In this document: piece by piece, positions 4,532 to 43,561 of the stretch
Layout: every line of letters begins with the position of its first letter
Position numbering within the stretch: the stretch's first letter is position 1
From: a virus
Taxonomy: Duplodnaviria > Heunggongvirae > Uroviricota > Caudoviricetes
Direction: 5' to 3' (one strand)
DNA: 44,895 nucleotides
Virus record (IMG/VR): IMGVR_UViG_2851982317_000005
The notes under the pieces: model-generated
Database searches by the model: none
The model's input: only the letters and a program-made list of their open reading frames with translations
Told to the model about the DNA's origin: nothing
Made by a program: the position numbers and the translations under genes

Positions 4532-4589
4532 AAAAAGGGCGGCAGAGCAGTCACGGAGTAAAACTGATACCGCCAAACGTCACCAGAAA
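4532..4589 (-). ncRNA. dicF: DicF small regulatory RNA (ftsZ-targeting sRNA of the dicB operon)
   Basis: Minus-strand sequence TTTCTGGTGACGTTTGGCGGTATCAGTTTTACTCCGTGACTGCTCTGCCGCCCTTTTT matches recalled DicF including 3' stem and U-run; sits between ydfC and dicB. Confidence 0.7.
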
Positions 4590-12797: not shown

Positions 12798-12998
12798 ATA
12801 CAGCGAACTCCATTGGTTTAGTTGGATATTTATTGTGCTGGACAAAAACGGTTTGCGGGGAAATCTTAGTTAAGTAGAATGACTGCGGGTGCTTGAGGCT
12901 ATCTGCCTCGGGCATGAACACCAACGGCAGATAGAGAAAAGCCCCAGGTAACATTACGCGTCCTGCAAGACGTTTAACATTAATCTGAGGCCATATCT

Positions 12999-13058
12999 AT
13001 GCGACACATAGAGATTAGCCTCTTACGGACCGAAAGGTCAAGGAGAAGCAGGCTATGA
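12999..13058 (+). CDS. mok: mok-like leader ORF translationally coupled to hok
   Basis: 19-codon ORF whose TGA stop overlaps the hok ATG (ATGA); inverted repeats in the leader. Confidence 0.35.
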   Translation: MRHIEISLLRTERSRRSRL

Positions 13059-13948: not shown

Positions 13949-14997
13949 GTGCGGGTATTACTTCGACCTGTTCTGGTACCGGAACTCGGGCTGGTGATCG
14001 TTAAGCCGGGCCGTGAATCCATGCCGGTATTCCACAATACCCGGTTACTGGTGGAGCCGGAACCGAAAAGCATGCGTAATCTGCCGTCCGGGGTCGTTCC
14101 TGCCGCTCGCCAGCCGCTGGTGGAAGACAAAACATTGCTGCCGTTTTTCAGTAACGCACGGGTGATTCGTGCTGCTGGTGGTGCTGGTGCATTGTCTGAC
14201 TGGCTGTTGCGCCATATTAAATCCTGCCAGTGGCCACACGGCGATTATCATCACAGCGAAACCGTCATTCACCGTTATGGTACCGGCGCAATGGTGTTGT
14301 GCTGGCACTGCGACAACCAGCTGCGTGACCAGACATCCGAATCACTCGAGCAACTTGCTCATCAAAACCTGTCAGCATGGATGATTGACGTCATCGGTCA
14401 CGCAATAAGCGGTACGCAGGAGCGTGAATTATCTCTGGCTGAATTATCCTGGTGGGCGGTCCGCAATCAGGTGGCGGACGCGCTACCGGAAGCGGTATTA
14501 CGTCGTTCGCTGGGGTTGCGTGCGGAAAAATCCGCTCAATGTACCGTGAAAGCGACATCGTACCGGGAGAGCAGACCGCCACCAGCATACTGAAACAGCG
14601 CACAAAAAATCTTGCGCCGCTGCCTCACGCCCACCAGCAACAGAACCCACCACAGGAAAAGACGGTGGTCAGCATTGCCGTTGATCCTGAGTCTCCGGAA
14701 TCTTTTATGAAACGACCTAAACGTCGCCGCTGGGTTAACGAGAAATACACACGCTGGGTGAAGACACAGCCGTGTGCGTGTTGTGGTAAGCCAGCCGACG
14801 ATCCCCATCACCTGATTGGTCATGGTCAGGGCGGAATGGGGACAAAATCTCACGATATTTTCACGCTACCGCTGTGTCGGGAGCATCACAACGAGCTTCA
14901 TGCGGATCCGCTGGCGTTCGAAGAAAAGCATGGTTCTCAGGTTGATTTAATTTTTCGTTTTCTTGATCACGCCTTTGCAACTGGCGTGCTTGGGTAA
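13949..14997 (+). pseudogene. YdfU-like (DUF968-type, HNH-like zinc finger) gene split by a frameshift near 14515-14535
   Basis: Two overlapping ORFs in different frames (13949-14593 and 14452-14997) jointly span 1049 nt, about one 349-codon gene minus one base; C-terminal part has CxxC...HH motifs; A5 run at the junction. Confidence 0.5.
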
Positions 14998-15380: not shown

Positions 15381-16202
15381 ATGAAACTGGAAGATTTACC
15401 GAAATACTACTCCCCAAAATCCCCTGGCCTGACCGATGCATCGGCCTCAACGTCAAAAGATGCGCTGAGTATCACTGATGTGATGGCCGCGCAGGGCATG
15501 ACACAGAATCGGGCTGAGATGGGTTTTTCTGCGTTCCTGGGGAAAATGGGCATCAGTATGAATGACAGGGCGCGGGCAACAGAATTACTGGCAGATTATG
15601 CACTCAGTCGGTGCGATCGTGTGGCGGCGTTGAGAAAACTTCCGGCAGAAATAAAACCGGTAGTGATGCGCATTATGGCTTCGTACGCTTTTGAGGATTA
15701 TGCCCGTAGCGCAGCGAGTAAAAAGCAGTGCCCTTGTTGCTATGGGGAAAAATTTATTGAAAGCGTAGTTTTTACAAACAAGGTCCAGTATCCGGATGGT
15801 AAGCCGCCGGTATGGGCAAAGTGTACGAAAGGTGTGTATTCGTCTTACTGGGAAGAATGGAAAAAAGTCAGGGAGGTGGTAAAAGTTGCCTGTCCGGAGT
15901 GTGGCGGAAAGGGTGAGGTTTCCACCGCCTGTAAGGATTGCCGTGGGCGTGGTGTCGCCATTCATCGTGAAGAGTCGGTAAAACGTGGTATGCCTGTTAT
16001 CAGAGACTGCCAGCGTTGTGGTGGTCGTGGCTATGAAAGACTACCATCAACGGAGGCATTTAATGCTATATGCGAGGTGACAAACCAGATAACACGCGCG
16101 TCATGGGAAAAAACAGTTAAGAAATTCTATGATGCGCTGGTGACCCGGTTTGATATTGAAGAAGCATGGGCTGAGCGGCAGTTAAAAAAGGTAACTAGGT
16201 AA
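15381..16202 (+). CDS. Late-gene antiterminator Q-like protein
   Basis: 273-aa ORF with repeated CxxCxGxG zinc-finger motifs, immediately upstream of a promoter-like sequence, a short-transcript terminator, tRNAs and the lysis cassette. Confidence 0.6.
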   Translation: MKLEDLPKYYSPKSPGLTDASASTSKDALSITDVMAAQGMTQNRAEMGFSAFLGKMGISMNDRARATELLADYALSRCDRVAALRKLPAEIKPVVMRIMASYAFEDYARSAASKKQCPCCYGEKFIESVVFTNKVQYPDGKPPVWAKCTKGVYSSYWEEWKKVREVVKVACPECGGKGEVSTACKDCRGRGVAIHREESVKRGMPVIRDCQRCGGRGYERLPSTEAFNAICEVTNQITRASWEKTVKKFYDALVTRFDIEEAWAERQLKKVTR

Positions 16203-16212
16203 CAAGGTTGAT

Positions 16213-16246
16213 TTTTCCGGAATCTGTGGTAAATTCGTCATAACAA
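16213..16246 (+). promoter_or_regulatory. Candidate late promoter PR' (TTGATT ... TAAATT) with expected qut region
   Basis: Promoter-like hexamers directly downstream of the Q-like gene and upstream of a terminator. Confidence 0.35.
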
Positions 16247-16284
16247 TGGGCTTTTTATGCCTGACGTTAGAAGAGTTTCTACAA

Positions 16285-16308
16285 CCCGCCGCCGAGCGGG
16301 TTTTTTAT
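16285..16308 (+). terminator. Rho-independent terminator (tR'-like)
   Basis: GC hairpin cccgccgccgagcggg followed by TTTTTT. Confidence 0.6.
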
Positions 16309-16345
16309 TGCGGAATTAATTACGGACCGTTATTATTCTGCTCCC

Positions 16346-16421
16346 GGCCCTTTAGCTCAGTGGTGAGAGCGAGCGACTCATAATCGCCAGGTCGCTGGTT
16401 CAAATCCAGCAAGGGCCACCA
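16346..16421 (+). tRNA. ileZ: tRNA with CAU anticodon, ileX/ileZ-like (tRNA-Ile2)
   Basis: Manual cloverleaf: acceptor GGCCCTT/AAGGGCC, anticodon loop CTCATAA, T-loop TTCAAAT, encoded CCA; closely resembles recalled E. coli ileX. Confidence 0.75.
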
Positions 16422-16428
16422 TCACAAA

Positions 16429-16504
16429 CCGCCATTAGCTTATCAGGAAGAGCAGACGACACGATAACAGGGTTGTTGGTGCGGGGGCGGGTCCCCGATG
16501 GCGG
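16429..16504 (+). other. Degenerate tRNA-like remnant (possible pseudo-tRNA)
   Basis: 76-nt segment with complementary acceptor arms CCGCCAT/ATGGCGG and a GC T-arm, but no canonical D or anticodon arm. Confidence 0.3.
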
Positions 16505-16521
16505 TCCATTATCGGTATTCA

Positions 16522-16595
16522 GCGTTGTTAGCTCAGCCGGACAGAGCAATTGCCTTCTAAGCAATCGGTCACTGGTTCGAATCCAGTACAGCGCG
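16522..16595 (+). tRNA. argO: tRNA-Arg (UCU anticodon)
   Basis: Manual cloverleaf: acceptor GCGTTGT/ACAGCGC (one G-U), anticodon stem ATTGC/GCAAT, loop CTTCTAA, T-loop TTCGAAT. Confidence 0.75.
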
Positions 16596-16708
16596 CTATA
16601 TTCATTCTTCCAGATTCCTTCCGGCAGAGCCTTATACTGAAATATACCTGGCTCAGGATATTGTTGAAAATATTTTATGTTTGTCAAAAATAAAAGTTCT
16701 GTTAAGTA

Positions 16709-17062
16709 TTGATTGAGTGTTTGTTATACGGTCTAATGGTTTTTTCAGCATTAAATATTTATCATTCATATGGTGTGGGTAGAGTGAATATTGATGAGGC
16801 GTCGGGGTGTTTCATCCTTAGGCAGCGTATTGATATAGTCAATGCAGGACGAGCAAAGGCCTTCAGCCGTTTGACAGTTTTGTTCTGTACTCCTGATCGT
16901 CTTTCGGGAAGAGACGTTATTATTCTGAATAGTGATGCTATACAGAGGGTTTGCGATGAGTTCATGGTTGCTAATTCAGAATTATTTGCTCTTGTTCAGG
17001 AGTACAACAGAATAGCCAGGACCTGTGGTATGGATGAACTTCGGATTACTCATCTGGGGTAG
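16709..17062 (+). CDS. Hypothetical moron protein of unknown function
   Basis: 117-aa ORF (TTG start in the ORF track; real start may be ATG 16736 or later); AT-rich sequence unlike the flanking phage genes. Confidence 0.35.
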   Translation: MIECLLYGLMVFSALNIYHSYGVGRVNIDEASGCFILRQRIDIVNAGRAKAFSRLTVLFCTPDRLSGRDVIILNSDAIQRVCDEFMVANSELFALVQEYNRIARTCGMDELRITHLG

Positions 17063-17142
17063 ATACATATCTGGATTATCACTTGTTACGGTAAAAAGTG
17101 ATTGCTTACTGTTTTTGTGAGTGGCATTGCAGCAGCCGGATA

Positions 17143-17229
17143 ATGTCAGTGCTGGCTGACGGTGTACTGGTGGCGGGTGTGGTGGTTGTTGCTTTCCCGT
17201 TGCTGAAAAAGAAAACGCCAGACTGTTAG
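17143..17229 (+). CDS. Possible 28-aa hydrophobic peptide with C-terminal KKK
   Basis: Manual translation MSVLADGVLVAGVVVVAFPLLKKKTPDC; resembles small membrane/type I toxin-like peptides; no clear ribosome-binding site. Confidence 0.2.
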   Translation: MSVLADGVLVAGVVVVAFPLLKKKTPDC

Positions 17230-17454
17230 CCGGGTATCAGTTAGCGGGAGAAATTTTTAAATACTTCACAATTCAGGCGGTTGACTGTTGTCTGGTTTGC
17301 GGGGAGTTTGTTAAAAGAAACTGGCATGGTGAATCCCCCTGTGCGGAGGGGCAATCAGCGAGTAGGTATATGGGATAATCGCGGATTCAGGTGCTGGTAC
17401 TGAATTCACCGGGAGGCACCCGGCACCATGCAATGGCACATAGCGCCACTCTCC

Positions 17455-17490
17455 AGCCCCTCTCCGGAGGGGCTGTTTATATTGATTTTG
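17455..17490 (+). terminator. Hairpin terminator between convergent moron genes
   Basis: agcccctctccggaggggct followed by gtttatattgatttt. Confidence 0.45.
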
Positions 17491-17509
17491 TCAGATGTGA
17501 GTAAACTCC

Positions 17510-17845
17510 TTATGGACTTTGTTGTTTTAGTCCATAAGGACATATTTGCAGAGTGCAACGGTTATTAAAGCATTCATTCAATACGTTATCTGTATTTGTA
17601 GGACATTCCTGGCTGTTTTTGATTAAATTCCAGAATGTTTTATTGAATGGTACTACGTTGTAAATGGTTACAGGTAGCACTTTGTTATTGAGCATGATAC
17701 CTGTGTGAGTCAGTGTAAATATACTTTCAGGAGGTAAGAAAGCATCCGATTGATACCAGATTATTAATTTTATTTTACTCCATATGACTGAAAAAGATAT
17801 TCCGCATGATGGCTGGATAACTGTATCAATCACAATCCACTTCAT
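17510..17845 (-). CDS. Hypothetical Cys-containing moron protein of unknown function
   Basis: 111-aa ORF with good ribosome-binding site (AAGGAAG 6 nt upstream of ATG); AT-rich; 12-bp perfect inverted repeat overlapping its stop codon. Confidence 0.5.
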
Positions 17846-18090
17846 TTAGCTTCCTTGTTTATGCCTTGCTGGTGATGTTCTGAAAAGTATAAATGATATT
17901 TTTGAATATAAACCATAGAGCAGAATTATTTTTCTGATGTTGTTTATTGTTTATTTAAATGCAGGGTGGTTTATATCTCGTCTTGTAGTTTATCCATGCA
18001 TATCTGCTTGATGATCAGGTTTCTATTTAAGGTATGGTTTTGTGTTTTTTCTGTGTTACATGTCTGGTATTTTAAAGAATTATTTTTCAG

Positions 18091-18294
18091 ATGGTGGAAA
18101 GAACCATGGCATTTAAACACTATGATGTTGTCAGGGCGGCGCCGCCGTCAGATCTTGCGGAAAAGCTGACACATAAACTGAAAGAGGGCTGGCAGCCGTT
18201 TGGTAGTCCGGTGGCCATAACCCCTTATACCCTGATGCAGGCGATTGCAGCAGAAGGTGATGTGGTGGTCAGTGGTGCAACTGAGCCCGAGTGA
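18091..18294 (+). CDS. Small conserved lambdoid protein upstream of holin (YbcW-like by size and position)
   Basis: 67-aa ORF MVERTMAFKHYDVV...; true start may be the second Met. Confidence 0.4.
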   Translation: MVERTMAFKHYDVVRAAPPSDLAEKLTHKLKEGWQPFGSPVAITPYTLMQAIAAEGDVVVSGATEPE

Positions 18295-42977: not shown

Positions 42978-43561
42978 TGGCATTCAGAATGAGTGAACAA
43001 GCACGGACCATAAAAATTTATAATCTGCTGGCCGGAACTAATGAATTTATTGGTGAAGGTGACGCATATATTCCGCCTCATACAGGTCTGCCAGCAAACA
43101 GTACCGATATTGCACCGCCAGATATTCCGGCTGGCTTTGTGGCTGTTTTCAACAGTGATGAGGCATCGTGGCATCTCGTTGAAGACCATCGGGGTAAAAC
43201 GGTTTATGACGTAGCGTCAGGGGACGAGTTATTTATTTCTGAACTCGGTCCGTTACCGGAAAATGTTACCTGGTTATCGCCGGAAGGGGAGTTTCAGAAG
43301 TGGAACGGCACAGCCTGGGTGAAGGATACGGAAGCAGAAAAACTGTTCCGGATCCGGGAGGCGGAAGAAACAAAAAACAACCTGATGCAGGTAGCCAGTG
43401 AGCATATTGCGCCGCTTCAGGATGCTGCAGATCTGGAAATTGCAACGGAGGAAGAAACCTCATTGCTGGAAGCCTGGAAAAAGTATCGGGTGTTGCTGAA
43501 CCGTGTTGATACATCAACTGCACCTGATATTGAGTGGCCTACGAACCCTGTCAGGGAGTAA
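42977..43561 (+). CDS. tfa: Tail fibre assembly protein (Tfa)
   Basis: 194-aa ORF overlapping the stf stop; typical Tfa N-terminus ([48 protein letters not shown]). Confidence 0.85.

Follow-up and report, generated by a model that had tools for sequence, protein, structure and literature searches.

Two independent accessory modules, one carrying the RssB anti-adaptor gene iraL, probably make up the Q-to-lysis locus of a lambdoid Escherichia coli prophage

What does a lambdoid prophage encode in the AT-rich gap that separates the antiterminator gene Q from its lysis genes? The question was raised by a viral sequence of 44,895 nucleotides (IMG/VR record IMGVR_UViG_2851982317_000005; "the window" below means this whole stretch), in which positions 16,600 to 18,090 had been read from the letters alone as a cargo locus with two convergent genes of unrecognised function. 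The window is a lambdoid prophage of Escherichia coli, and its gene order confirms that the 1,491-bp locus lies between Q, with its tRNAs, and the lysis cassette (Table 1). Both open reading frames (ORFs) are present. Our conclusion, which we hold with a probability of about 0.88, is that this part of the prophage, from Q to the lysis genes, combines as a mosaic two accessory modules that are independent of each other, and that one of them, the iraL module, acts via RssB and RpoS. The core of the locus is already known and annotated in RefSeq, and the plus-strand gene orf92 is the one remaining candidate for novelty.

On its sequence, the minus-strand gene is iraL, which encodes an RssB anti-adaptor already characterised experimentally in E. 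coli CFT073. The ORF, for which cysteines and a good ribosome-binding site had been noted (AAGGA, about 8 nt ahead of the ATG), encodes a protein identical at 111 of 111 residues to the product of a gene in the potB prophage of CFT073 (WP_000871291.1). The coding DNA shows only two differences, within the limit of at least 95% identity by which the authors of the CFT073 study define IraL, and positions 16500 to 18120 of the window are 99% identical to CFT073 DNA. The gene is the sole member of the IraM family in the 49-kb stretch of CFT073 examined, which holds most of the potB prophage. In a genome identical to the window over the locus, the NCBI Prokaryotic Genome Annotation Pipeline (PGAP) labels the gene "anti-adapter protein IraM" (again WP_000871291.1). 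The NCBIfam model for IraM, NF007393, matches with 162 bits against a cutoff of 121 (E = 4.7e-48), aligning residues 1 to 110 with profile positions 1 to 113 of 114. By phmmer, residues 1 to 78 align ungapped with residues 4 to 81 of Protein Data Bank (PDB) chain 8twd_A, which are residues 1 to 78 of IraM (E = 9.1e-32). This alignment suggests that the N-terminal PmrD-like beta-barrel, the RssB-binding domain, is present in the protein.

The gene is widespread. The whole locus is 100% identical in seven complete genomes, including that of the enterotoxigenic E. coli (ETEC) O25 strain ATCC 43886, and is present at a coverage of at least 80% in 863 of 5,426 complete E. coli genomes. In the same 5,426-genome collection, blastn found an iraL-type copy (at least 95% identity) in 1,419 of 4,775 matching records, i.e., in roughly one complete E. 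coli genome in four; K-12-type iraM shows up in this search at ∼71%. All 60 full-length copies of iraL examined are intact, with no stop codons and no gaps. The setting in CFT073 is also a lambdoid prophage with the order tRNAs, DUF3927 gene, STnc100 region, iraL, DUF1737 ORF and holin. It differs from ours in its insertion site (potB, while the prophage of ATCC 43886 adjoins ompW) and in what lies upstream: CFT073 has an IS200 copy there and three tRNAs, compared with the two tRNAs of the window.

The function of the protein is known from CFT073. Hryckowian et al. (2014, mBio) named the IraM homologue of the potB island IraL, reported 58.9% amino acid identity to K-12 IraM, and showed by immunoblot and stability assay that it raises both the level and the stability of RpoS in exponential phase; binding to RssB was demonstrated by two-hybrid and pull-down assays (PMC4045071). 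Our BLASTP value of 62% identity to K-12 IraM is consistent with the published figure. The structure of the paralogue IraM shows that it remodels the RssB linker and blocks the binding of sigma-S (PMC10844676), and IraL is reported to contact RssB otherwise than IraM does (PMC4045071; PMC10844676). Given the identity of the two proteins, the copy in the window would likewise bind RssB and protect RpoS from the protease ClpXP. In the proposed mechanism, IraL would be made in the lysogen during exponential growth, as shown for the identical CFT073 protein, and would bind the adaptor RssB, so that sigma-S (RpoS) is not handed over to ClpXP. RpoS would thereby be stabilised and the general stress response pre-armed, which would amount to a lysogenic conversion of host stress physiology.

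IraL shares the NF007393 family with IraM (YcgW/ElbA) of K-12 and with Salmonella RssC, and its first 78 residues align with 8twd over the full length of the crystallised domain. The proteins differ in that IraM is induced by Mg2+ starvation, whereas IraL is active in unstressed log phase (PMC4045071; PMC10844676). IraL also has a 4-residue C-terminal extension (QQSP), created by an inverted repeat (Table 1). According to published descriptions, the C-terminal tail (residues 80 to 111, positions 17510 to 17608) is flexible, shows little conservation, and is not required for binding to RssB. Four cysteines in the tail (C81, C92, C97, and C102, spaced C-x10-C-x4-C-x4-C) are invariant in IraL, K-12 IraM, and a paralogue from an Stx2c (Shiga toxin 2c) phage, and a metal- or redox-related role is conceivable for them.

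The original prediction assumed that the late promoter drives the locus. [quoted passage not shown] As iraL lies on the opposite strand and has this published sigma70-type start, it is not driven by the late promoter. At the other end of the gene, the perfect 12-nt inverted repeat that had been placed at 17498 to 17531 does exist and does cover the stop codon (17510 to 17512), together with the last ten codons, at the shifted positions given in Table 1. It is possibly a 3′ stabilising or terminator hairpin. No T-run follows it on the minus strand, and it is not a canonical terminator.

Relative to the prophage of strain STEC1585, homology runs over STnc100, ends at about 17490, and resumes at about 18096, in the region of the DUF1737/nanS-p start codon. 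The upstream regulatory region of iraL, which is 99% identical to CFT073, has no homology to the STEC1585 prophage, where nanS-p follows STnc100 copies. The DUF1737 ORF (Pfam PF08410, E = 4.2e-17; phrog_143, a 634-position profile) aligns with the 5′ end of the 1,965-bp SASA esterase gene of STEC1585 and is flagged by PGAP as a pseudogene lacking its C terminus; on the downstream side, it forms the border between the locus and the backbone.

The base composition agrees with the original prediction in part. With 39.4% GC, the locus is AT-richer than the window (50.4%), but not uniformly so: values are 31% for positions 16597 to 16783, 44% for orf92, 51% for the DUF3927 gene, 55% for STnc100, and 32.5% for the iraL block (17491 to 18090), with ∼30% from 17846 to 18090. 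AT-richness is thus restricted to two sub-blocks, and nowhere in the window is the GC content over 600 bp lower than in the iraL block (mean over all such windows, 50.5%; standard deviation, 4.9%).

We also surveyed what occupies the slot in 80 IMG/VR loci with a near-identical orf92. The DUF3927 gene follows orf92 in all but two, which end shortly past orf92, and STnc100 follows DUF3927 wherever the contig extends that far. iraL is present in about 60 of the loci and absent from at least 14 that share the orf92-DUF3927-STnc100 order; in the loci lacking it, the holin gene or the DUF1737 ORF comes directly after STnc100. iraL therefore appears to have no fixed association with orf92. The borders against STEC1585, the lowest GC content, and the absence from some loci together suggest that iraL is a self-contained moron inserted between STnc100 and a truncated nanS-p. 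Morons are recognised as strongly AT-rich segments on the opposite strand with their own promoter and a 3′ hairpin, and the iraL block fits this signature. The moron of host-interaction type that had been considered plausible is thereby borne out for iraL, whose product acts on the host.

The other module would be made up of orf92, a DUF3927/TciB-like gene, and STnc100 with its terminator, all on the plus strand and in the orientation of Q and the lysis genes. It would be a reduced form of a conserved block of the late region in which an AraC-like regulator gene, when present, is followed by orf92, the TerB-like gene tciA, the DUF3927 gene tciB, and STnc100. In more distant relatives we observed the order orf92, TerB-like gene, DUF3927 gene, and holin gene, in some cases with an AraC-type helix-turn-helix gene in front. 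The backbone of Escherichia phage JLK-2012 has tciA (TerB-like), tciB (DUF3927), the STnc100 region, the nanS-p esterase gene, S, and R.

The hairpin that had been noted at 17455 to 17490 is present, with its stem at 17454 to 17475 in a terminator scan, followed by the T-rich tail TTTATATT. It belongs to a gene for the small RNA (sRNA) STnc100: the Rfam model RF02076 matches with 132.4 bits against a gathering score of 47 (E = 4.4e-30), over model positions 1 to 206 of 206 and without truncation, which identifies the hairpin as the predicted 3′ end of the sRNA. STnc100 is a multicopy prophage sRNA family whose members are expressed, one of them verified by Northern blotting, in the enterohemorrhagic E. 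coli (EHEC) strain EDL933 (PMC5331693), and it has been described as a prophage sRNA related to PasD (bioRxiv 10.64898/2026.05.13.724894). The copy in the window shares with this family the full-length match, the predicted terminator, and the position known from Stx phages, just after the cargo and before nanS-p. The preceding cargo differs: in Stx2 phages, STnc100 is separated by 75 nt from the stx2 genes upstream, whereas here it follows orf92 and DUF3927. PGAP places an incomplete hypothetical protein on the minus strand at 17315 to 17440; we rejected it as a gene, since it lies antisense within STnc100 and is probably spurious. The late region of the STEC1585 prophage contains STnc100 four times (stretch L005, 3575 to 3787 and 5547 to 6256): one copy comes after a gene for a TolA C-terminal domain, and the other three form a tandem array behind an AraC-like gene and an orf92 homologue. 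Cargo cassettes thus seem to be flanked by STnc100 copies, at which recombination could exchange modules.

Ahead of STnc100, the original prediction listed a hydrophobic 28-aa peptide with a KKK tail (17143 to 17229). The peptide is real and forms the C-terminal part of a 43-aa ORF that starts only 35 bp after the orf92 stop codon and matches Pfam PF13064 (E = 1.7e-27; 95.6 bits against a cutoff of 25) and phrog_1470, annotated as "TciB-like"; PGAP names it a DUF3927 family protein (WP_000562553.1). It shares its backbone position, ahead of the STnc100 region and nanS-p, with tciB of JLK-2012. There, however, the TerB-like tciA is present and the DUF3927 protein is 50 to 54 aa long. The "Tci" function names are annotation only, and in JLK-2012 and the Citrobacter-type loci the overlapping TerB-like and DUF3927 genes are apparently coupled in translation.

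The plus-strand ORF at 16709 to 17062 has 117 codons when read from a TTG, and it does contain a gene, though a shorter one than the original prediction gave. An exhaustive HMMER search of 1.84 billion representatives returned 20 relatives, all small and unnamed, as well as one repeat protein (E = 8e-4) that we disregarded. The full-length distant homologues have 91 to 95 aa and all align from residue 26 of the 117-aa ORF. Against a homologue with 56% identity to the ORF and 60% over the orf92 core, codons 26 onward have a ratio of nonsynonymous to synonymous substitution rates (dN/dS) of 0.27 at a dS of ∼1.1, and the first, second, and third codon positions are 74/75/53% identical; both alternative frames contain stops, and their values are ∼0.8 to 1.2. 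In codons 1 to 25, dN/dS is 0.6, the DNA aligns only with gaps, and 1 synonymous and 4 nonsynonymous sites segregate, with one gapped copy. As the homologues align from residue 26 and the first 25 codons lack a coding signature, we place the gene at the GTG start given in Table 1; on grounds of conservation, the starts at TTG 16709 and at ATG 16736, the latter used by some gene callers, were set aside. Among IMG/VR and reference genome copies, the 92-codon frame is intact in 84 of 84 and third-position sites make up 7 of 11 segregating sites, counts of low power given that most copies are 97 to 99% identical. The codon pattern identifies orf92 as a real protein-coding gene, most likely of 92 aa, that appears to have been under purifying selection over a deep divergence.

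The product of orf92 matches PHROG 2873 (function unknown; E = 3.5e-70) and has no match in Pfam, NCBIfam, PADLOC models, or PDB sequences; a sub-threshold RHIM match in the Pfam/NCBIfam search was regarded as chance, and the best hit of a PDB profile search reached only E = 1.1. Its AlphaFold2 model (mean predicted local distance difference test score, 90.8) is confident and shows two long helices with a short beta-hairpin between them, a predicted fold that resembles a generic coiled-coil hairpin. The topology is that of prefoldin beta (Foldseek template modeling scores of 0.70 to 0.73), but no sequence or significant structural homology to prefoldin subunits was found, and the helical-hairpin matches are non-specific. 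We infer that the orf92 product is a coiled-coil protein of the cytoplasm and that the gene is transcribed as part of the late operon.

Could the locus instead be a decaying remnant without current function, i.e., a silent iraL, a truncated orphan DUF3927 gene, and a nanS-p stub, with the conservation reflecting one lineage's recent spread? We consider this improbable, though it is the strongest of the rival explanations, and several observations weigh against our own reading. Within 65 bp upstream of the iraL ATG there are four substitutions relative to CFT073, two in the 5′ untranslated region (17848 and 17850), one adjoining the start site (17879), and one near the possible −35 element (17908); a −35 variant of unknown activity occurs in some strains (PMC4045071). 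Expression of iraL in this strain is predicted from CFT073, and there is a modest chance that the four promoter and leader substitutions make its regulation differ. On the plus strand, solely orientation points to transcription from the late promoter. The 43-aa DUF3927 protein has an altered N terminus, without the first hydrophobic helix of the 50-aa versions, and the overlapping upstream TerB-like gene of JLK-2012 and Citrobacter-type loci is absent, with tblastn finding no TerB-like sequence in E. coli-type loci; lacking both helix and partner, the DUF3927 ORF may be non-functional. Decay would also fit the pseudogene call for the DUF1737 gene and the frameshift in a neighbouring DUF968 gene, and the near-identity of the copies leaves the polymorphism counts little power against it. 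On the other hand, iraL is intact in every full-length copy examined and is carried by about one in four complete E. coli genomes, its Shine-Dalgarno sequence, start codon, and TATACT hexamer are unaltered, and orf92 shows purifying selection across a deep divergence.

A second alternative concerns orf92, which might be an anti-activator or partner of an AraC-type regulator, comparable to ANR/Aar or TraM, which are small and helical, and orphaned in the window by loss of the regulator. An AraC-family HTH_18 gene does lie directly upstream of homologues with 56 to 64% identity in Shiga toxin-producing E. coli (STEC) prophages and two other assemblies, and in 2 of the 80 IMG/VR loci, and TraM of the TraR-TraM complex (2q0o) is among the weak Foldseek matches to the helical-hairpin model, at rank 31. 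However, the AraC gene is missing from most orf92 loci, including the window and the Citrobacter-type loci, orf92 has no similarity to any curated family, including those that bind regulators, and the structural matches are those of any helical hairpin. This role is doubtful, more so than decay. The upstream gene encodes 241 to 242 aa (phrog_1450, function unknown; stretches L004, 164 to 889, and L013, 3142 to 3870). Another prophage AraC-like regulator, AppY, stabilises RpoS independently of Ira proteins (PMC10057817).

A third proposal takes the two convergent ORFs, alone or together with the peptide, for the parts of a small new module that is directed against phages, acts as toxin and immunity, or combines two components in another way; it draws on their small size, orientation, and AT-richness, on a slot known for defence genes and toxins, and on the lack of an assigned function for orf92, but it is largely refuted and very improbable, because the minus-strand gene is IraL, with a different function already demonstrated, the two genes occur independently with DUF3927 and an sRNA gene between them, the conserved neighbours of orf92 are TerB-like and DUF3927 genes rather than iraL, and PADLOC models (E ≤ 0.01) matched none of the 117-aa ORF, IraL, DUF3927, and DUF1737.

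The comparison with stx in the original prediction needs correction. In an Stx2c prophage of E. coli O157:H7, the order is Q, tRNAs, stx2cAB, STnc100, an IraM-family gene on the minus strand, and nanS-p. It follows that stx holds the position of orf92 and DUF3927, and that the IraM-family cassette lies one element downstream and can co-occur with stx. The Stx2c-prophage gene, which is placed and oriented as iraL is in the window, encodes a third IraM-family paralogue (WP_001303568.1; 107 aa) with 75% identity to IraL. No paper in the literature collection searched names both IraM and Stx2c. EHEC strains with high log-phase RpoS but without iraL have been noted (PMC4045071), and the paralogue behind stx2c could bear on this phenotype.

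A broader reading is that orf92 founds an unstudied and usually unannotated late-region prophage family confined to Escherichia, Citrobacter, and close relatives, with a discrete role, and that IraM-family genes are general cargo behind STnc100; we regard this combination as tentative, well short of even odds. The orf92 product could, for example, set the timing of lysis, act at the envelope or in superinfection, or counteract the AraC-like regulator encoded ahead of it in some prophages. At loci of homologues with 38 to 64% identity, including one in Citrobacter braakii, orf92 is linked to TerB-like, DUF3927, and holin genes. A scan of genome contigs with a profile from a 5-sequence alignment hit three species records only: E. 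coli, C. braakii, and a metagenome-assembled genome labelled Bacillota, which carries enterobacterial-type phage genes and is probably mis-binned. The gene is not annotated in the RefSeq records inspected (ATCC 43886, CFT073, and STEC1585). Related prophages carry in the same slot a 142-aa protein with a TolA C-terminal domain (Pfam PF06519, E = 2.4e-23; phage mEp460_ev081, stretch L002, 3997 to 4425, and the STEC1585 prophage, stretch L005, 3041 to 3469), a further cargo variant that possibly interferes with the host Tol system.

Table 1. Positions of the features discussed, in window coordinates except for the last row
Feature	Position	Strand	Remarks
Antiterminator gene Q	15381-16202		
Terminator-like hairpin	16283-16302		downstream of Q, before the tRNAs; terminator scan
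tRNA-Ile2 (CAT)	16346-16421		tRNA-Ile in PGAP, Met in ARAGORN
tRNA-Arg (TCT)	16522-16596		
orf92	16784-17062	+	92 aa, GTG start; core of the 117-aa ORF 16709-17062; PHROG 2873
DUF3927/TciB-like small membrane protein gene	17098-17229	+	43 aa, GTG start; Pfam PF13064
STnc100 sRNA gene	17295-17484	+	Rfam RF02076
12-nt perfect inverted repeat	17507-17518/17529-17540 (17507-17540)	−	repeat search
iraL	17510-17845	−	111 aa, five Cys; RssB anti-adaptor, IraM family (assigned by sequence)
iraL 5′ untranslated region, start (17878), and TATACT −10-like hexamer (17886-17891)	17846-17891	−	published 5′ RACE and sequence
AT-rich upstream regulatory region of iraL	17892-18090	−	upstream end of the inserted block; 99% identical to CFT073
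DUF1737 ORF	18091-18294	+	N-terminal part left over from an esterase gene of the nanS-p type (DUF1737-SASA)
IraM-family gene (WP_001303568.1)	NZ_CP038425.1, ∼2069251-2069796 (stretch L099, 3281-3826)	−	E. coli O157:H7 strain 2571

Past the DUF1737 ORF, the backbone continues with the genes for the holin, a YdfR-family protein, lysozyme, Rz, and iss/bor. Upstream of the locus, a Trp_leader match below the Rfam threshold (16203 to 16309) in all likelihood stems from the leader of the late promoter, whose terminator lies at 16283 to 16302. The first of the two tRNAs is of the lysidine-modified ileZ type that is typical of Stx-like phages; the two are 100 bp apart, as against a set of three (Ile, Arg, and Arg) in CFT073 and in the Stx2c phage. 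Elsewhere in the window, a DUF968-family gene upstream of rusA (13949 to 14997) is split into two overlapping ORFs, and PGAP calls it frameshifted in an identical genome, which suggests partial decay of the prophage. The early region of the identical genome, moreover, contains an element of the IS66 family. The Rfam gathering score was also exceeded by DicF (4537 to 4588, minus strand), beside dicB in the annotation of the identical genome, by sok (12887 to 13057, plus strand), beside hokD in the same annotation, and by IS009 (43320 to 43518, plus strand), near the tail-fibre end.

The locus opens no new class of system, and the practical result is a corrected annotation. A lysogen of this prophage, in an ETEC-type background, carries a horizontally acquired iraL that would raise RpoS during growth, a gene that has been associated with the way pathogenic E. 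coli adapts to its niches. iraL behaves as a separable AT-rich cassette at a fixed point between STnc100 and nanS-p, and orf92 emerges as a conserved gene missed by the annotations we inspected. If the broader reading holds, IraM-family genes would be general lysogenic-conversion cargo behind STnc100, also right after stx2c, tying the stabilisation of RpoS to the carriage of toxin phages.

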